Shown: positions 1,570 to 9,191 of the stretch, piece by piece | How the letters are laid out: each line of letters starts with the position of its first letter | How positions within the stretch are numbered: the first letter of the stretch is position 1 | Assembly: GCA_965215605.1 (NCBI GenBank) | Contig: OZ244070.1 | Location: 1,504,001-1,568,000, forward strand | DNA length: 64,000 nt | Origin: an uncultured Candidatus Binatia bacterium | GTDB lineage: Bacteria > Desulfobacterota > Binatia > UBA9968 > JAJDTQ01 | Direction: 5' to 3' | The notes under the pieces: model-generated | What the model saw: the letters and a program-made list of their open reading frames with translations, nothing else | The model's database searches: none | What the model was told of the DNA's origin: nothing | Made by a program: the position numbers and the translations under genes

Positions 1570-3981
1570 ATGGCGACCTACGTCGGCAAGAGCATCAAGC
1601 GCAAGGAGTCCTTCGACTCCATCCAGGGGAAGAACACCTATATCGGCGACATCGAGGTCCCCGGGATGCTCCATGCCGCCATCCACCGAAGCCCCTACGC
1701 CCACGCCCGGGTGATGCGAGTGGACCTGTCGGAGGCGCTTGAGCAGCCGGGCGTGGTGGCGGCCATGAGCGGCGAGGATGTCCGGCGCCTGTCCCGGCCC
1801 CTGGCGCCCTTCCCCTTCACCCGGACCAAGCCGTACACCAGCGACTACCCACGGGTGCGGTTCGCCGACCACTACTGTCTGGCGGTGGACCGGGTGCGGC
1901 ACGTGGGCGAGGCGGTGGCAGTAGTGGTGTCGGAGGACCGCTACGCGGCGGCGGACGCGGCGGAGGCGGTGCGGGTGGAATACGAGCCCCTGCCTCCGGT
2001 GGTGGACGTGGAGGCCGCGCTGGAGCGGGGGTCCGTGCGGCTCTACGAGGAGTGGCCCGACAACATCCAGTACGAGTTCCGCTTCAGCGAAGGGCCGGTG
2101 GAGAAGCTTCTGGAGGAAGCCCCGGTGGTGATCCGGGAACGCATCGTGCAACACCGGTACACCGGAACGCCCATGGAGCCCCGGGGAGTCATCGCCAGCG
2201 TCGACCAGCGGGACAACCTGCTGACGCTGTGGTCGTCCACCCAGGTGCCCCACGCGCTTCCCAATCTGGTCCTGGAGACCCTCGGCCGCGAGGACCTCAA
2301 GATCCGGGTGATCTCGCCCACCATGGGCGGCGGCTTCGGCATCAAGTGGGCGTTCTATCCCGAAGAGGTGCTGATGCCGCTCTTGTCGCTCCAGCTCAAC
2401 CGGCCGGTGGGCTGGCGGGAGAGCCGCAGCGAGCACATGGTGGCGTCACACCATTCCCGGGCCCAGGTGGACCACGTGGAGGCGGGCTTCGACCGGGCCG
2501 GCCGCATCACCGCCCTCAAGACCCATGTGATCGTGGACTTGGGCGCCGCCTACCCCAGCGGCGGCACCTCCCTGGCCTTCGTCACCGCCAACTTCATCCC
2601 CGGGCCCTACCGTGTCGACAACTACGCCACCACCTCCTTCGGCGTGGTCACCAACAAGACCGCCGCCGGCCCCCACCGGGCCAACGGCAAGGCCGAGTCC
2701 AACTTCATCATGGAGCGGGTGATGGACCGGGCCGCCCTGGAGCTGGGTTTGGGCAAGGACGAGATCCGGCGCCGCAACCTGATCCAGCCCCACGAGTTCC
2801 CCTACACCTGCGTTACCGGGTCCACCTACGACAGCGGCGACTACCCCGCGTGCCTGCGGAAGGCGCTGGCGGAGGCGGACTACGCCGACCTGCTGGCGGA
2901 CCGGGACCGGTGCCGCCTGGAGGGGCGCTACCGGGGCGTCGGCCTGGCGTTCCTGCTGGAGCCCCTGAGCTCGCTCCGGCCCAATGCCTACAACGCGGGC
3001 TACGAGACTGTGACGGTCCGGGTGGACCCGGTGGGCAAGGCCTGGGTGTTCTCGGGCGACGTGAACATGAGCATGAGCCACAAGACCACCCTGTCCCAGG
3101 TGGTGGCGGACGAGCTGGGCGTGCGCTTCGAGGACGTGCACGTGTTCGAGGGCGACAGCGCCCTGGTCTCGGCGTCCAGCGGGTCCTACGCCAGCCGGTT
3201 CTCGACGGTGACGATTTCGGCGGCCATCAAGGCCAGCCGCGCCGTGAGGACAAAAATACTGGCGATCGCCGCGCACTCGCTCCGGACCCATCCCGAGGCC
3301 CTCGAATGTACCGGCGGCGTGATTCTGGGCCGGGACAAGCCGGGCGTTGCCCTCACGGTCAAGGAAGTGGCCAACATCGCCTACTACTCCATCAACCAAC
3401 TGCCGGGGAACATGGATCCGGGCCTGCACGACACCCACTATTTCATCAATCCCAACACCAGCTTCGAGCCGGACGCCAAGGGCCGGACGTCGAACTTCTC
3501 GACGTTCCCCTACGCCGCTCACGTGGCCTACGTGGAAGTGAACGCCGCCACCGGCGAGACCACGATCCTCCGGTATCTTACCGTGGACGACTCCGGCAAC
3601 ATGGTGAACCCGATGATCGTCGACACCCAGATCACCGGCGCCATCTCCCACGGCGTCGGGGGCGCGTTTCTGGAAGAGCTGGTGTATGACGAGCAGGGAC
3701 AGCTCCTGTCCGGAAACTTCGCCGACTACCTGATCCCGTCCATGGCGGAGATGCCGGACCTGGAGATCCATCACATGGTGACGCCCATGCCCTTCACCCC
3801 GGGCGGGTTCAAGGGAGTTGGGGAGATCGGCGCCATCGGCCCGCCGGTGGTGCTGGCCAGCGCGATCGAGGATGCGCTGGCGCCGCTGGGGGTCAAGATC
3901 ATGAGTCTGCCGCTCAAGCCGGAGAACATCTGGCGGGCGATACACGGAAAGCGCAAAGCAACAACAGGAGAGCGGACATGA
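1570..3981 (+). CDS. Xanthine dehydrogenase family molybdopterin-binding large subunit (CoxL-like; not a form I CO dehydrogenase)
   Basis: 803 aa; RSPYAHA, MEPRG, STQVPH, MGGGFG, GSYASR, KGVGE (catalytic Glu). Active-site loop reads GPHRANGK, not AYxCSFR. Confidence 0.93.
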   Translation: MATYVGKSIKRKESFDSIQGKNTYIGDIEVPGMLHAAIHRSPYAHARVMRVDLSEALEQPGVVAAMSGEDVRRLSRPLAPFPFTRTKPYTSDYPRVRFADHYCLAVDRVRHVGEAVAVVVSEDRYAAADAAEAVRVEYEPLPPVVDVEAALERGSVRLYEEWPDNIQYEFRFSEGPVEKLLEEAPVVIRERIVQHRYTGTPMEPRGVIASVDQRDNLLTLWSSTQVPHALPNLVLETLGREDLKIRVISPTMGGGFGIKWAFYPEEVLMPLLSLQLNRPVGWRESRSEHMVASHHSRAQVDHVEAGFDRAGRITALKTHVIVDLGAAYPSGGTSLAFVTANFIPGPYRVDNYATTSFGVVTNKTAAGPHRANGKAESNFIMERVMDRAALELGLGKDEIRRRNLIQPHEFPYTCVTGSTYDSGDYPACLRKALAEADYADLLADRDRCRLEGRYRGVGLAFLLEPLSSLRPNAYNAGYETVTVRVDPVGKAWVFSGDVNMSMSHKTTLSQVVADELGVRFEDVHVFEGDSALVSASSGSYASRFSTVTISAAIKASRAVRTKILAIAAHSLRTHPEALECTGGVILGRDKPGVALTVKEVANIAYYSINQLPGNMDPGLHDTHYFINPNTSFEPDAKGRTSNFSTFPYAAHVAYVEVNAATGETTILRYLTVDDSGNMVNPMIVDTQITGAISHGVGGAFLEELVYDEQGQLLSGNFADYLIPSMAEMPDLEIHHMVTPMPFTPGGFKGVGEIGAIGPPVVLASAIEDALAPLGVKIMSLPLKPENIWRAIHGKRKATTGERT

Positions 3982-4841
3982 GCGAGACAGGGAACGGTTT
4001 CACGGAACGGGCGACGCGGGAGCTGGCGCGGGTGTCGGCGGTCTTCGCCGCGGGCGAGGCGGAGATCGCCGACACCTATTTCAACTGGGACCAGCGGGAC
4101 CGGGAAAAGGAGGTCCTCTGGCTCACCAAGCAGGCGGGCCGGGAGATCGAGAGCACCTTCACGGGCCTGAAGGAGGTCGTCGAGAAGGTGGGCGGCGACT
4201 TCATGAAGTCGGACCAGTACTGGGTCGACCGGTGGGGCGGCGACGTCGACCGGAACTGGCTGGAGGAAAACCTCTGGCGCACCAAGCAGGAGCTCAACCA
4301 CGGCAACCGGTGCGTGGACATCATCGAATGGCTCACCGGCGAGCCCGTGGACATCAAGGAGGTGGTGCGCCGCTACAATCGCTGGACTCCCGATCCGTCG
4401 CTGCCCGACATGAAGGAATGGGTGCGGCTGGCGGAGGTGTTCCGGGAGCAGGAGGCCCGCCAGGAACCCTGGGCGCGGCTCATCAACTCCCAGGGACTGC
4501 TCGAGGGCGGCAGTTGCGGCCTGTTCTACGCAGCATCCCAATTGAGCGGCAGCGAGCTCAACGACCGCCTTTCCGAGGCCTTCACCGTGGTGCTCGACGA
4601 CGAGCGCGGCCACGGGCCCGCCAACATCTACCAGATCGCCGACGCCTTCACCACGCAGGAGGCGGTGGACGGCGCCAGGGGCCTGATGGTGGAGCGGGGC
4701 ATCCAGCGTCTGCGCATGCGCAACGAGCAGTTCAGCTTTCCCATCGACGAGGCCCGCATCCAGGACATCGCCGCCGGCAACATCGGCCTGGACGTCACCA
4801 AGGCCATCTGGGGCGAGACCTTGGCGAAGTTCATCGACTAG
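3978..4841 (+). CDS. Ferritin-like (di-iron four-helix bundle) protein
   Basis: Two ExxH motifs (QELNHG, DERGHG) with upstream Glu residues (REIES, LLEGG); ATGA overlap with the large-subunit gene; host-like codon usage. Confidence 0.7.
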   Translation: MSETGNGFTERATRELARVSAVFAAGEAEIADTYFNWDQRDREKEVLWLTKQAGREIESTFTGLKEVVEKVGGDFMKSDQYWVDRWGGDVDRNWLEENLWRTKQELNHGNRCVDIIEWLTGEPVDIKEVVRRYNRWTPDPSLPDMKEWVRLAEVFREQEARQEPWARLINSQGLLEGGSCGLFYAASQLSGSELNDRLSEAFTVVLDDERGHGPANIYQIADAFTTQEAVDGARGLMVERGIQRLRMRNEQFSFPIDEARIQDIAAGNIGLDVTKAIWGETLAKFID

Positions 4842-5117
4842 CACCAAACGCCACCGCACCGCCGAACTCAGAGGTATTCCTCTGACCCGTCGGCAAAGAC
4901 GTGCGCAGGTTCGATCGACGTCCTTTTCGCTCCCCTGTGCGAAGTCACGGACGATGCGCCGACCGAAGGGGTCATGGCAGTTGATGAGATAGACAGACTC
5001 CGTCGCTTGCCTGCTCTTCCGATCGCTCAAGGGCAACAGTAAAACGTGCTAAAAAGGGAGTCCGAGGTACCGCTTGCCTGCCGAAATGATTCCTATGAGA
5101 GGTGGAGGCACGTAACC

Positions 5118-7907
5118 ATGAGCGGCAGCACAAAAGACGAGTGGCCGTATCCGGGTTCGCGCTGGTGGAAATTCGATTTCCACACACATACACCCGCTTC
5201 TTTTGATTTTGCGGAGCCGGGACTGTCACCCGAGGGTTGGCTACAGTGCTACATGGCGGCGGGTGTCGACTGCGTGGTCGTAACCGATCACAACAGCGGC
5301 TCGTGGATCGATAAGCTCAGGCATGCTTATCAACAGATGAAACAGCAGGCGGCGTCAGAAACCGGACATGGTGGATTTCGTGAACTGACACTCTTTCCGG
5401 GCGTAGAACTTTCAGTGAACGGCGGTTTCCATCTGCTGGCGATACTCGATCCAAGTGCCGACACGGCCCAGGTTGACACCCTGCTGGGACAGGTGGACTA
5501 CGACGGCACCAAGGGTCAAAGCGACGGCGTCACACGTAAGGGGGCTGCGGAGGTCGTCAAGGCTGTGTTGAACGCCGGAGGCATCCCGATTCCGGCCCAT
5601 GCTGATGGTGAAAAGGGGTTGTTGCGCCTGAAACAGGGGAATTCCGGCGCACTCGACGCCAATTCCGTCCGTCAAGTTCTGGATGAACCCGGTATTCTGG
5701 CAATGGAGGTGGTGGATACAAGGAACCCGAAACCTGAAATCTATCACGAACGTAAGTTGTTGTGGTCGGAAGTCCTCGGCAGTGATTGCCATAGGTTGCA
5801 GGGCGAATTCAGTCCTGGTTCCCAGTACACTTGGGTGAAGATGGCAGAGCCTTCACTTGAAGGGCTCCGGTTAGCTCTGTTGGACGGCAACGGCGTTTCG
5901 ATTCGGCGTAGCGATGAGGGTGGGTTCGAGCCGTTCAAGACGCCCGCGCACTTCATTACCGGTTTGCAGGTTCGAAGCGCCCGCTTTATGGGGAACGGAG
6001 TCCCCGAGACCGTAGCGTTGAGTCCCTTCTACAATGCCGTGGTCGGCGGCCGCGGCACGGGCAAGTCCACCCTCGTATGTGCGATCCGGTTGGCGTATCG
6101 TCGCGAGTCTGAACTCAAGAGACTCAGCGAAGACGCAGACCCGCGTCGTCACCTCGAAGCTTTCGTGAAACCAATCAAAGGCCGTGACGGTGGCGGCGCG
6201 CTACGGGAGAACACCGAAATTAGGGTCGAATTGCTGCGCGAAGGTATCGTCCACAGGCTAAGGTGGCGGCCGGATGGAACAGGAGATGTTGTCGAAGAAT
6301 GCGACGCTGATGGCCAGTGGCGATCCTCTGCCAGCCAGGCAATCCATGCCGAGCGCTTTCCAATCCGTTTGCTGTCACAGGGACAGATTGCAGCAATGGC
6401 GGGCGACAATCGCCAAGCCCTACTCGATATTATCGATGATGAAGCACACGTTGCTGCGCAGCATCGGACCTTCGACGAAGCAAAGAACACATACCTCTAC
6501 CAACGAGCTAGACTCCGTGAACTCGAAGGACGCTTGGCTGGTCGGCAGGAGTTGCAGCGCAAGCTCGATGAGGTGTCTCGCAAGCTCGAGACTTTGACTC
6601 AATCACACCATGCGGAGGTCCTGAAAGCCCACCAACAGGCGACGAGACAGCGACGGGAAATCGACGCCACATTAGAGCAGTTGAAGGAGATACCTGAACG
6701 GATCCAGACATTCGCGCAGGATTTGATACTCGACGACTGGCCAGAGGATGTCTTTGATACCGAACTGGATGCCGACGCCTTGGAGTGGCGCCGTGAGGTA
6801 GAGAAGGTACTGTCGGAAGCGCTTGAAGCACTGGCCGAGGCAGGTGGAAACTTGCTCGCTACGACGCAACCTCTTGTTTCACATGATCGGCTCAACCAAT
6901 GGCGCCAACGCGCGGGTCAAGCCCATGCAGCCTATGACGCGCTTCAGGTCACATTGGCGGAGCAGGGGGTGTCCGACCCACGCGTGTTTGGCGATCTCGT
7001 CTTGGAACGGCAGCGTTTGGAAGCACAAGGCAAGGAACTCGAACAGTTGCAGGAGGAGGCAGCGCGGTTGCAAACCGATATTGAGGCTCAATGGCAACGA
7101 GTGTTTTGGGCACGCAAAGCGATAGCAGACGCACGAGCGGCGTTTGTGGACGGTGCATTGGCCGCGAATGCGTTCGTGAAAATGGAAGTGATCCCGTTTG
7201 GCTTTGATGCGCAAGTGATTGAGCGCAGCCTGCGTGCAATGCTGGACGTCGAGGATGAACGCTTCGAGGGCGATCTACTCCCTTTGGTTAACGGTGAGCC
7301 CAAGTCCGGTTTAGTAGTCGAATTGTCGCAAGCAACCGATCATGCGGAGAAGCTCGCTGAAGTGAAGCAGAGGATGATCGACGTTGACGAAAGGCTCGGC
7401 GGTCACTTCCGAAACTACCTGAAGCGCCGGTTGGAAAGGCCGGAGTTTGCCGATCACCTCCGTTGCTGGTTCCCCGAAGATGACCTGCGCATCGAATACA
7501 GCCGTGGCGACAACCAGTGGGCGCCGATCCGAGAAGGCTCACAGGGCCAACGCGCGGCGGCTCTGCTGGCGTTTCTGCTCGCATTTGGAGACGAACCCTT
7601 GGTGCTCGATCAACCGGAAGATGACCTGGACAATCACCTGATCTACGACTTGATCGTACGCCAAATTCGCGCGAACAAGCTGCGCAGGCAACTCATCATT
7701 GTAACGCACAACCCCAATGTCGTGGTGAATGGGGATGCCGAGATGGTCCACGCGCTGGATTTTAGTTCGGGCCAGTGTCGCGTCATTCAGCGTGGCGCGC
7801 TTCAGGACACGTCAGTGCGTGAGGAGGTGTGCCGAGTCATGGAAGGCGGTCGTGAAGCGTTCGCACGCCGCTGGGCGCGTCTGGGAAGAGACCCCAAGTA
7901 TGTTTGA
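5118..7907 (+). CDS. PHP phosphoesterase fused to an ABC/SMC-like coiled-coil ATPase (Ppl/TrlF-like)
   Basis: ATG 5118 after GGAGG. PHP motifs DFHTHTPAS, VTDHNS, GVEL, HLL, IPAH, GSDCH; Walker A GGRGTGKS; Q-loop LSQGQI; long coiled coil; signature SQGQRAAA; Walker B/D-loop LVLDQPEDDLD; H-loop IVTHNP. Confidence 0.9.
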   Translation: MSGSTKDEWPYPGSRWWKFDFHTHTPASFDFAEPGLSPEGWLQCYMAAGVDCVVVTDHNSGSWIDKLRHAYQQMKQQAASETGHGGFRELTLFPGVELSVNGGFHLLAILDPSADTAQVDTLLGQVDYDGTKGQSDGVTRKGAAEVVKAVLNAGGIPIPAHADGEKGLLRLKQGNSGALDANSVRQVLDEPGILAMEVVDTRNPKPEIYHERKLLWSEVLGSDCHRLQGEFSPGSQYTWVKMAEPSLEGLRLALLDGNGVSIRRSDEGGFEPFKTPAHFITGLQVRSARFMGNGVPETVALSPFYNAVVGGRGTGKSTLVCAIRLAYRRESELKRLSEDADPRRHLEAFVKPIKGRDGGGALRENTEIRVELLREGIVHRLRWRPDGTGDVVEECDADGQWRSSASQAIHAERFPIRLLSQGQIAAMAGDNRQALLDIIDDEAHVAAQHRTFDEAKNTYLYQRARLRELEGRLAGRQELQRKLDEVSRKLETLTQSHHAEVLKAHQQATRQRREIDATLEQLKEIPERIQTFAQDLILDDWPEDVFDTELDADALEWRREVEKVLSEALEALAEAGGNLLATTQPLVSHDRLNQWRQRAGQAHAAYDALQVTLAEQGVSDPRVFGDLVLERQRLEAQGKELEQLQEEAARLQTDIEAQWQRVFWARKAIADARAAFVDGALAANAFVKMEVIPFGFDAQVIERSLRAMLDVEDERFEGDLLPLVNGEPKSGLVVELSQATDHAEKLAEVKQRMIDVDERLGGHFRNYLKRRLERPEFADHLRCWFPEDDLRIEYSRGDNQWAPIREGSQGQRAAALLAFLLAFGDEPLVLDQPEDDLDNHLIYDLIVRQIRANKLRRQLIIVTHNPNVVVNGDAEMVHALDFSSGQCRVIQRGALQDTSVREEVCRVMEGGREAFARRWARLGRDPKYV

Positions 7908-9168
7908 CAACCCACTAGAGCTACTGGACGCGATTCGGCTGGGCGAAAGCAGCCGTCTGGAGTTCAAAGAAGTGCGCTTCGCTGGCGGTAAAGTCCGGGG
8001 ACCCAGCCGCGACGCGCTCGCAGACGGGCTGGCTGCTTTCGCCAACAGTCATGGTGGTGTGTTTGTCCTCGGGGTTGAGGACAAGACTCATGAAGTGACT
8101 GGTGTTCCAGAGGAGCGCCTGGATGCGGTCGTGGATCTGGTCCGCGAAGTGTGCTCGGATTCCATCGATCCCCCCATTGAAGACGTCGTTCTGGAGCGGC
8201 TCCGGTTGCCTTCAAGCTCTGGTGAGTCATTGGCCGTTGTAAGGGTAGAAGTGCCGCGCAGCCTGTTTGTCCATCGAAGCCCGGGCGGTTTCATGGCTCG
8301 GACGACCGATTCAAAACGCCCTATGTCCCCGGAGCGGCTTGCCCGTCTCTTTCAGCAACGCAGCCAGACGCGTCTCATCCGCTTCGACGAGCAGGTCGTC
8401 GGGACCGCCCGAATGGACAATCTGGAGCCACGCTTGTGGCAGCGGTTCCGCACGTCCCGCTCCGACGACGACCGGGACGATTTTCTCAACAAGCTTGGTA
8501 TGGTACGTGCCGACGAGGACGGCACGGTGAAGCCAACGGTGGCCGGCATCTTGATGGCCACCGAAGATCCGCGCCTGTGGTTGCCCAATGCGTATGTCCA
8601 AGCAGTCGCGTATCGTGGAGACGTTATCCGACCCTCGACGGTTGACGCCTACCAACTAGACGCCGCGGATGTGACAGGACCTCTCGACCATCAGATTGTC
8701 GAGGCCTGTCGATTCGTGGCTAGGAACATGAAGACGGCGGCATACAAGGAACAAGGACGCACGGACAAACCACAATATGAGCTAACCGCCGTGTTCGAGG
8801 CTATGGTGAATGCAGTAGCCCACAGGGACTACTCGATTCATGGCTCCAAGGTAAGACTGCGACTATTCGAGAACCGCCTGGAGATATATTCCCCCGGAAC
8901 CGTTCCTAACTCGTTGACCATTGAGAACCTCCGCTACCGGCAGTCAGCGCGGAACGAGGCCATTTGCAGCCTTTTGGCCAAGTGTGCAGTCCCTGACGGG
9001 GCTTGGTTGACGACGGACCGACGGAACATTATGGACAAACGCGGTGAAGGAGTGCCGCTTATCCTGGATCGTAGCGCAGAGTTGTCCGGCCGGGATCCCG
9101 AGTACCGGCTGATTGACGATGCAGAACTCCTTCTGACGATTTTCGCCGCAAGTGAGTATACTCTCTAG
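7900..9168 (+). CDS. Schlafen/AlbA_2 domain + HATPase_c_4 (RecG-C-terminal-like) protein, about 422 aa, no C-terminal HTH
   Basis: ATG 7900 overlaps upstream stop (ATGTTTGA). GESSRLEFKE, AAFANSHGG, GVED (AlbA_2); EAMVNAVAHRDYS, SPG, RNEAI, MDKRGEG (HATPase_c_4). Confidence 0.88.
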   Translation: MFDNPLELLDAIRLGESSRLEFKEVRFAGGKVRGPSRDALADGLAAFANSHGGVFVLGVEDKTHEVTGVPEERLDAVVDLVREVCSDSIDPPIEDVVLERLRLPSSSGESLAVVRVEVPRSLFVHRSPGGFMARTTDSKRPMSPERLARLFQQRSQTRLIRFDEQVVGTARMDNLEPRLWQRFRTSRSDDDRDDFLNKLGMVRADEDGTVKPTVAGILMATEDPRLWLPNAYVQAVAYRGDVIRPSTVDAYQLDAADVTGPLDHQIVEACRFVARNMKTAAYKEQGRTDKPQYELTAVFEAMVNAVAHRDYSIHGSKVRLRLFENRLEIYSPGTVPNSLTIENLRYRQSARNEAICSLLAKCAVPDGAWLTTDRRNIMDKRGEGVPLILDRSAELSGRDPEYRLIDDAELLLTIFAASEYTL

Positions 9169-9191
9169 CTCTCGTAAATCCTGAGAACGGC

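Follow-up and report, generated by a model that had tools for sequence, protein, structure and literature searches.

What is a pair of overlapping genes, set in an insert of lower GC content, doing in the genome of an uncultured Candidatus Binatia bacterium? The pair lies on contig OZ244070.1 of assembly GCA_965215605.1, within the 64-kb stretch of DNA that we analysed (positions 1,504,001 to 1,568,000 of the forward strand; "the window"). A first-pass annotation, made from the sequence alone, had proposed an undescribed anti-phage system that couples a Ppl-like ATPase to a Schlafen protein. We find that the two genes are a free-standing copy of trlF-trlG, a pairing already known as the core of the TRL operon. 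We think that the trlF-trlG cassette is probably a mobile two-gene module against phages or plasmids, of the abortive-infection kind, with TrlG as a tRNase effector that would arrest growth. What we observed directly is the anatomy of the two genes, the fact that they are inserted, how far the pairing is conserved and which genes accompany it.

According to the available part of the paper by Hapeshi et al. (2020), mutants of Photorhabdus laumondii that grow at 36–37 °C were selected, and the mutations fell in a gene whose product has an AlbA_2 and an HATPase_c_4 domain (PMC7554251). This gene had been misannotated as recG, which the authors call a misnomer, and they renamed it trlG. The Temperature Restricting Locus (TRL) consists of trlG, trlF (annotated as a histidinol phosphatase) and trlR, which encodes a regulator of 79 amino acids. 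Transcription of TRL increases upon a shift from 30 to 36 °C. Deletion of the operon, or mutation of trlG, permits growth at 36 °C, and supplying the operon in trans restores the restriction. The paper also notes the operon in further proteobacteria, including Vibrio anguillarum, and on plasmid pYR3 of Yersinia ruckeri, where type I methylase genes intervene (PMC7554251).

As in TRL, the window has a PHP-ATPase gene (gene 1) followed directly by a gene with AlbA_2 and HATPase_c_4 domains (gene 2). Gene 1 also belongs to a named family, the TrlF family of NCBIfam, whose name derives from the work of Hapeshi et al. and is already used in public records, including those of gene 1's homologues ("TrlF family AAA-like ATPase"). 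So the pairing does have a name, contrary to what had been supposed. On the other hand, it has been described as an operon and not as a defence system: PADLOC v2.0.0 has no model for the pair and, as anticipated, recognises gene 1 alone, as Ppl. In the literature that we searched, we found no paper that treats trlF-trlG as a defence system. Also apparently new, and given below, are the evidence for a cargo hotspot, how widely the pair is conserved and the way in which the Schlafen-GHKL module swaps partners. The window locus also differs from TRL: it has no gene for a small regulator like trlR, and the domain positions reported for Photorhabdus TrlG (14–128 and 298–365, in the part of the paper available) resemble those of the more distant partner clades and not those of the window's clade, as compared by these reported positions. 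The features of the locus are:

about 4842 to 9191, no strand: the inserted cassette, ~4.35 kb of lower GC content, bounded on one side by the stop codon of a conserved gene for a 287-aa protein and on the other by the start of the gene for an enoyl-CoA hydratase
5100 to 5108, plus strand: AGGTGGAGG, resembling a ribosome binding site, 9 nt 5' of the ATG of gene 1 at 5118 (read from the sequence)
5118 to 7907, plus strand: gene 1, a trlF homologue of 929 aa, encoding a PHP nuclease plus an SMC/Rad50-like ATP-binding cassette (ABC) ATPase (NF045780; PADLOC Ppl)
5154 to 5912, plus strand: PHP domain, residues about 13–265, or about 15–265 in the AlphaFold2 model (column counts, secondary structure of the model and the CehA/McbA match)
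5949 to 6452, plus strand: N-lobe of the ATPase head, residues 278–445 (Walker A; Q-loop Q421; Pfam AAA_23)
6453 to 7157, plus strand: long helical (coiled-coil) insert, residues 446–680, ~235 residues (AlphaFold2 model)
7176 to 7904, plus strand: C-lobe of the ATPase head, residues 687–929 (Pfam AAA_21; sequence match to AriA)
7900 to 7907, plus strand: overlap of genes 1 and 2, 8 nt, ATGTTTGA (ATG of gene 2 at 7900; TGA of gene 1 at 7905–7907)
7900 to 9168, plus strand: gene 2, a trlG homologue of 422 aa, with a Schlafen/AlbA_2 domain, a middle domain and a GHKL ATPase domain ("Schlatpase")
7945 to 8328, plus strand: Schlafen nuclease domain, residues 16–143 (E16-x4-E21-x-K23, or ESSRLEFK; AFAN at 46–49; GG at 52–53; GVED at 58–61)
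8767 to 9114, plus strand: GHKL (Bergerat-fold) ATPase domain, residues about 290–405 (motif conservation; Pfam HATPase_c_4)

Is gene 1 a Ppl? It scores 591.3 bits against NF045780, the NCBIfam equivalog model for the TrlF family (cut-off 350), and the alignment runs from end to end (residues 13–923 on profile positions 2–944). Searching the window's own genome with this model gives 591.1 bits. Its score against NF042955, the equivalog model for "anti-phage protein Ppl", is 539.5 bits, which is under the cut-off of 1000. None of the 41 TrlF-family members that we scored reaches this cut-off either (the maximum is 625). PADLOC's Ppl model (PDLC02208) matches residues 13–922 with E = 6.4e-139. 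Judged by these sequence comparisons, gene 1 is a paralogue of Ppl and not a Ppl equivalog. Ppl is a single-gene anti-phage system from E. coli. It shares the PHP and ATPase architecture, and gene 1 aligns with the Ppl models over their full length. According to the available part of a review, E. coli Ppl is a 3'–5' exonuclease on single-stranded DNA that is released by depletion of nucleoside triphosphates (NTPs) and by 3'-OH ends: NTPs on its PHP and NTPase domains keep it off, and 3'-OH ends switch it on. But Ppl is described there as acting alone, whereas gene 1's clade usually has a Schlafen-GHKL partner.

All of the metal-ligand residues of the PHP domain are present in gene 1 (D20, H22, H24, D57, H58, E97, H105, H161 and D223), and NCBIfam's CehA/McbA metallohydrolase domain matches residues 15–254. 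In the ATPase, Pfam recognises AAA_23 (300–529) and AAA_21 (702–869). Walker A is GGRGTGKS (residues 310–317, nt 6045–6068), and the C-lobe has the signature SQGQ (808–811), the Walker B motif DQPED (831–835), the H-loop histidine H864 and a conserved C-terminal EGG..AF..R motif (909–918). The motifs are as complete as the first-pass annotation had claimed, and G310..K316 S317, Q421, S808-G810-Q811, D831..E834 and H864 are invariant in 28 of 28 paired TrlF homologues. The long coiled coil that was thought to split the ATPase is also borne out. In the AlphaFold2 model (pLDDT 86), helices at 446–473, 476–495, 498–535, 552–587, 590–615 and 622–680 lie between the two lobes. The best Foldseek matches of the model are heads with coiled coils, namely MukB, Smc, JetC (of Wadjet), RecN and Rad50. 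By sequence, the only matches to solved structures are AriA of the PARIS system (PDB 8v46, E = 8e-6, residues 772–877) and an SMC head, and both are on the C-lobe; PADLOC's AriA model matches with E = 3e-12.

Gene 2 has two Pfam domains, SLFN_AlbA_2 (PF04326; residues 16–143, 51.6 bits, gathering threshold 25.3) and HATPase_c_4 (PF13749; residues 315–405, 65.8 bits, gathering threshold 26). It matches no helix-turn-helix (HTH) or helicase domain in Pfam and no family in NCBIfam. The Schlafen motifs and the missing HTH domain are thus as first reported. Among 29 TrlG partners, E16 and K23 are invariant, and position 21 holds E (19 partners), Q (8) or D (2). N49, G53, G58 and V59 are invariant as well (in 28–29 TrlF-TrlG pairs from other genomes). 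The GHKL motif is present as E300-x3-N304..H308 R309 D310. Among 28–29 partners, E300, N304, H308, R309, E328, P332 and G333 are invariant, and D310-Y311, R351-N352 and G382-x-G384 are invariant or nearly so. The window proteins keep every catalytic residue of both genes. With phmmer, ESSRLEFK aligns with ESASIEFK of the rat Schlafen nuclease domain (PDB 5yd0), and the further matches to structures are SLFN13, SLFN14, SLFN5 and the uncharacterised 3lmm. The AlphaFold2 model (pLDDT 87) resembles 3lmm over its whole length. Its N-terminal domain resembles the nuclease domains of mammalian SLFN5/11/12/13/14 (5yd0, 7q3z, 7fex and 9nyy, at E ~1e-5), and its C-terminal domain resembles pyruvate dehydrogenase kinases and histidine kinases. 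By its Pfam match, catalytic motif and predicted fold, gene 2 is a Schlafen-type putative nuclease of tRNA or rRNA. It is also a Schlatpase supradomain, with the Schlafen domain and the PF13749 GHKL domain, including its Bergerat motif, in one chain.

What is known of such proteins? Schlatpases (AlbA_2 plus PF13749) account for 58.6% of 103,533 prokaryotic Schlafen proteins, as stated in the part available of a recent preprint (bioRxiv 10.64898/2026.05.29.728809). In the Schlafen-Argonaute (SLFN-pAgo) system described there, ATP binding leads to a tetramer and the Schlafen domain cuts tRNA in defence, which supports the earlier idea that gene 2 is an RNase. Gene 2 shares the AlbA_2 and GHKL domains of bacterial Schlafens, along with the E-x4-(E/D)-x-K and SAFAN-type motifs, and matches positions 55–425 of the 1121-position PADLOC model for the Schlafen-bearing pAgo. 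Unlike SLFN-pAgo, it ends at residue 422, with no Argonaute MID-PIWI core or other fused sensor. The presumed sensor for gene 2 is encoded by a separate gene, trlF. In the classification of Taboada et al., as far as their text is available, the commonest prokaryotic form is Slfn-HisKinase (34%); two of seven single Schlafen genes were protective, and these were fusions to DUF262 and to an Ig-like domain, not the HisKinase type (PMC13056530). Schlafen-minimal-kinase-wHTH genes have been listed, in the available part of a further paper, as backup suicidal effectors near BREX loci. The available parts of the Schlatpase, BREX-effector and Taboada papers on Schlafens do not mention PHP or Ppl, and no paper in the literature that we searched brings Schlafen and the PHP domain together.

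Is the stretch of lower GC really an insert? Its GC content is 0.556–0.610 over 5001–9000 and that of both flanks is 0.638–0.726. We searched for both flanks in 24 genomes from the same genus. In 14 of these the site is empty, with the flanks nearly abutting (15–42 nt apart; at one such locus, L077, the stop codon is followed by ~31 nt and then the start of the hydratase gene). Therefore the gene pair is a true insertion, as had been thought. In two more, the flanks are 128–174 nt apart. One congener (G020) has the same trlF-trlG pair in the same place, with 95% amino-acid identity for gene 2, and the other seven have different inserts of 0.9–3.5 kb. Three of these inserts contain HEC-01, a candidate system in PADLOC (AAA_21 ATPase plus DUF4276), and one of the three also holds the C-terminal remnant of a TrlG-like gene. 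Two contain methylase genes: one encodes a type II-like methylase alongside an unknown protein of 509 aa, and the other an N6-methylase of 803 aa with matches to both type I and type IIG models. The remaining inserts encode a DUF900 hydrolase (one congener) and a 170-aa unknown protein (one congener). Within the genus, the site that separates the 287-aa gene from the hydratase gene is a hotspot whose cargo varies, and horizontal acquisition of the gene pair is confirmed. We found no tRNA, integrase or flanking repeat at the site to account for the arrival of its cargo.

Adjacency of the two genes in other genomes, on which the original proposal had been made to depend, is widespread. TrlF-family genes (those over the NF045780 cut-off, including the window's own) are present in 12 of 41 relatives and in 30 of the 401 genomes of our phylum-wide sample (~7%). 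For neighbourhoods, we considered 31 loci from the phylum sample (the 29 other genes over the cut-off and two full-length genes just below it, with nine partial matches left out) and 15 loci from the relatives (with one fragment left out and two rows of one split gene merged). The next gene downstream, on the same strand, resembles gene 2 in 19/31 and 11/15 of these loci, respectively. All seven of the downstream partners that we checked have both Pfam domains, with identity to gene 2 down to 25–34%. A third sample comprised the best 80 of 568 confirmed loci on named contigs, with one genome per species. Three had too little downstream DNA, and 53 of the other 77 have a Schlafen-GHKL gene directly downstream of TrlF. 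These pairs come from Pseudomonadota, Acidobacteriota, Actinomycetota, Verrucomicrobiota, Bacillota and Chloroflexota, plus a Methanospirillum metagenome-assembled genome. (On the Methanospirillum contig, locus L121, the TrlF relative has 31% identity, and the TrlG-like gene directly downstream is 60% identical to a bacterial partner, which suggests transfer between domains.)

The two genes are also inherited together. In a tree of 46 TrlF rows (a quick search, with midpoint rooting for drawing only), 31 rows have the partner, and the partner label requires 6 changes, versus ~12.8 when it is shuffled. A basal clade of six rows lacks the partner; the window's clade has it in nine of ten rows. 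The one row without it, L013 (60% identity to gene 1), is nested in this clade and looks like a loss. The pairwise identities of TrlF and TrlG are correlated (r = 0.92, a value reached by none of 2000 permutations). This is sufficiently explained by co-inheritance of both genes in one operon, and it does not prove contact. When we compared conservation between 52 TrlG-linked and 13 TrlG-less TrlFs, no distinct partner-specific surface could be resolved, because the TrlFs with a TrlG are the more diverse group. A complex prediction for TrlF 290–929 with TrlG 1–290 (with alignments, and with the PHP and GHKL domains excluded) had a score of 0.00, which weighs neither for nor against contact.

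Decay of the nuclease sites is reciprocal among the pairs of clade B (L020, L021, L031, L038 and L050–L057) and clade C (L024–L035). Of 28 pairs, 10 have QxN in place of HxH in the PHP domain, and the Schlafen motif of the partner is intact. In 8 of 28, the second Schlafen acid is Q and D57 of the PHP domain is N, with HxH intact. The window's clade retains both sites. These differences among clades fit a division of labour in which each pair keeps at least one nuclease, and they offer a natural experiment on which nuclease acts.

Might TrlF and TrlG nevertheless be two independent single-gene defences that travel together, with TrlF acting alone like Ppl, TrlG acting alone as a Schlafen, and no coupling? 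Ppl is described (in the review, as available) as a single-gene system, and TrlF occurs without TrlG in 12/31, 4/15 and 24/77 loci. Conversely, the relatives have nine genes that are 49–54% identical to gene 2 (L061–L069) and do not adjoin TrlF (in 9/9 fetched loci). In a 49-row TrlG tree, these TrlF-less genes branch within the TrlF-linked clade and have TrlF-linked rows next to them. But they are never solitary: a gene for DuOB (dual OB fold, PF22557) is directly 3' in six and a DUF488 gene in three, and this partner is tightly linked. (Two of the three DUF488 loci are within islands of DUF1156 methylase and DUF499 (HEPN) genes.) The Schlafen-GHKL gene is a portable module with swapped partners. 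Also, independence would not account for the overlap of stop and start codons by 8 nt, the fixed order and direct adjacency in many phyla, the correlated divergence or the reciprocal decay of the nuclease sites. And the single Schlafens that protected on their own, in the available part of PMC13056530, were DUF262 and Ig-like fusions instead of the HisKinase type. We consider two uncoupled defences to be unlikely.

The company that these genes keep points to restriction-modification and plasmids. TrlF without TrlG lies between hsdM and hsdS (L013), 5' of hsdR (L022), with a methylase on one side and an SNF2 helicase on the other (L023), or 5' of a YhcG PD-(D/E)xK nuclease (L018) or a PIN protein (L014). 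TrlF-TrlG pairs are often behind Eco57I-type or N6/N4 methylases (L024, L028, L029 and L032). Relatives of gene 1 are present in 473 plasmid records, and at E ≤ 1e-20 there are none in 50,697 phage records. On the IncF plasmid pL37-4 (L059), genes for a DEAD helicase and then an N6 methylase precede TrlF, and TrlG is absent. Relatives of a clade-C TrlG are found in 50 plasmid records, including those of six Yersinia plasmids. On the IncC plasmid pNDM102337 (NC_019045.2; L160), the order is HTH-hsdR-trlF-trlG-hsdS-AAA-hsdM, adjoining a Tn7-like TnsD gene, and the trlG-like gene is annotated as "RNA-binding domain-containing protein". One Burkholderia thailandensis plasmid has the pair as well, with a TrlG-like gene 61% identical to gene 2. 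A role in defence, as originally proposed, is plausible given the hotspot with its HEC-01 and methylase cargo, the association with restriction-modification and plasmids, and the conservation of the pair across phyla.

At two other loci, TrlF has neighbours of another kind. At L036, a TIR_2-domain protein is encoded directly downstream. At L041, a DUF1156 methylase is downstream, and upstream is a gene for a DUF4062-HATPase_c_4 protein, which has a GHKL domain behind a different N-terminal domain. The slot adjoining TrlF can hold a different effector.

We also considered that TrlF and TrlG might form a complex for DNA repair or an accessory to restriction, with TrlF resembling SbcCD/Mre11-Rad50 (and its PHP domain in the place of Mre11) and TrlG as a regulator that binds nucleic acids. 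The Foldseek matches of TrlF, its embedding in type I restriction operons, and the names given to plasmid TrlG-like genes in databases ("RecG-like helicase", "transcriptional regulator", "RNA-binding protein") would agree with this. However, TrlG has neither a helicase nor an HTH domain, its Schlafen catalytic motif is conserved, and "recG" is a misnomer according to the available text of the Photorhabdus paper (PMC7554251). The accessory, patchy distribution is also unlike that of repair genes. So a repair complex seems very improbable.

Could the operon instead be a physiological governor of growth, which stops replication when the temperature rises or under other stress and so serves its host's life cycle and not immunity? 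The heat induction of TRL in Photorhabdus, and the phenotypes of deletion, trlG mutation and complementation (PMC7554251, as available), are what such a governor would produce. However, a misfiring abortive system would likewise be expected to arrest growth upon heating. Furthermore, a governor does not sit well with the patchy distribution among the relatives and the phylum sample, with arrival by insertion into a cargo hotspot, or with occurrence on conjugative plasmids and within restriction-modification operons. The genes are also spread over unrelated phyla and habitats, and trlR is absent from the window locus. We think it improbable that growth control is their function.

How might the cassette work as a defence module? 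We propose that TrlF, with its PHP 3'–5' exonuclease and SMC/Rad50-like head, would sense or attack the ends of foreign DNA or sense a fall in the nucleotide pool. Binding of ATP by the GHKL domain of TrlG would lead to oligomerisation and so assemble the active Schlafen nuclease. Once licensed, this nuclease would cut tRNA or rRNA, and growth would stop. TrlF most likely restrains or licenses TrlG, as in PARIS or PrrC, and is probably not a simple upstream activator. A required activator is disfavoured because loss-of-function mutations in trlF would then be expected among the temperature-tolerant mutants, and none were seen: in the part of the paper available, the sequenced clones that retained their tolerance had mutations in trlG and never in trlF, even though trlF is larger (PMC7554251). 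The absence of trlF mutants may mean that TrlF is dispensable for the arrest, or that loss of trlF is intolerable when trlG is intact, by a PARIS-like logic. The ATGTTTGA overlap suggests translational coupling of the two genes.

PARIS (AriA-AriB) and PrrC/RloC likewise join an ABC- or SMC-type ATPase to a latent nuclease that halts translation or growth. The window's pair differs from PARIS in that the partner is a Schlafen-GHKL protein instead of the DUF4435/TOPRIM protein AriB, and the matches of gene 1 to AriA are only partial. It differs from PrrC/RloC in that TrlG is a Schlafen-GHKL protein and not the PrrC anticodon nuclease, and TrlF has a PHP nuclease of its own. The gene prrC sits inside a type I restriction operon, and trlFG can lie within one too, as on pNDM102337.

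An addiction module would have some of the same properties. TrlG would be the toxin and TrlF its neutraliser, as in a toxin-antitoxin system, and the pair would stabilise the DNA that carries it, with no anti-phage role. If loss of trlF were lethal with trlG intact, then the Photorhabdus selection would yield no trlF mutants, as the available text reports; furthermore, the genes overlap and the family is frequent on plasmids. Yet TrlF has 929 amino acids with fully conserved nuclease and ATPase sites, which exceeds the needs of a neutraliser, and it often occurs without TrlG. The copy in the window's genome is on the chromosome, where there is no mobile element for it to stabilise. Addiction also overlaps with abortive infection and does not exclude it. 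We see little chance that the pair serves addiction only.

Several points weigh against our proposal of an abortive-infection module. The trigger, the cleavage of tRNA by TrlG, the dependence on ATP and the contact between TrlF and TrlG are inferred, and in the literature that we searched we found no phage or plasmid assay of any trlFG pair. The phenotype published for TRL is temperature-dependent growth arrest, and the available part of the paper discusses control by temperature and of the life cycle and proposes no role in defence (PMC7554251). TrlF is often without TrlG (at the loci counted above, on IncF plasmids and at L013), and, since close relatives of TrlG occur with DuOB or DUF488, TrlF and TrlG may act independently. 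Within the window, the pair is surrounded by metabolic genes, with no neighbouring defence gene seen and no recognisable mobility gene, and the direct or inverted repeats in its flanks are only short, chance-level matches. We did not find trlR upstream: the 276-nt gap (4842–5117) has no credible open reading frame, and the longest one on the same strand is of 27 aa. And the genome's listed sequencing runs include no RNA run, and hence no support from expression.

More tentatively, trlFG might be an immune system of two genes, widespread yet still missing from the catalogues, and might also explain the Photorhabdus phenotype. A Ppl-like sensor-nuclease for DNA ends and the NTP pool would then hold a Schlafen-GHKL tRNase latent until infection, and the "temperature restriction" of Photorhabdus would be autoimmune misfiring. 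Slfn-HisKinase would be a portable effector cassette, with TrlF, DuOB and DUF488 as interchangeable, separate partners. This would also explain why Slfn-HisKinase has not been shown to be protective as a single gene: it would need its separately encoded partner.

If the defence reading is correct, then the pair is an unlisted immune system that is present in ~7% of the phylum's sampled genomes (30/401), in many other phyla and on IncC-type plasmids. The genes, which annotation tools now label just "Ppl" or "ATP-binding protein", would then be annotated differently. The published temperature phenotype would gain a mechanistic explanation, and there would be a hypothesis for the commonest bacterial Schlafen architecture, namely that it works with a neighbouring partner gene.

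As for the rest of the locus, the annotated starts of both genes are supported because the lengths of homologues fit (929–941 aa at ~100% coverage for gene 1; 418–443 aa at 99% coverage and 67–88% identity for gene 2) and, for gene 1, also by the AGGTGGAGG site. Promoter and terminator scans at the locus gave scores at the level of shuffled sequence, and there is no tRNA within the window. The upstream neighbours are molybdenum hydroxylase subunits and the 287-aa protein. Downstream are the enoyl-CoA hydratase, a UbiD-type decarboxylase and a TauE exporter. The 287-aa gene (3978–4841) matches no Pfam family; it lies within the molybdenum-hydroxylase cluster and has 82–95% DNA identity across the genus. 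Elsewhere in the same genome (G000:C1:2265218-2265958), inside an open frame of 304 aa, is a fragment that is 50% identical to residues 6–255 of gene 2. More distant Schlafen-GHKL genes are also present elsewhere in this genome.

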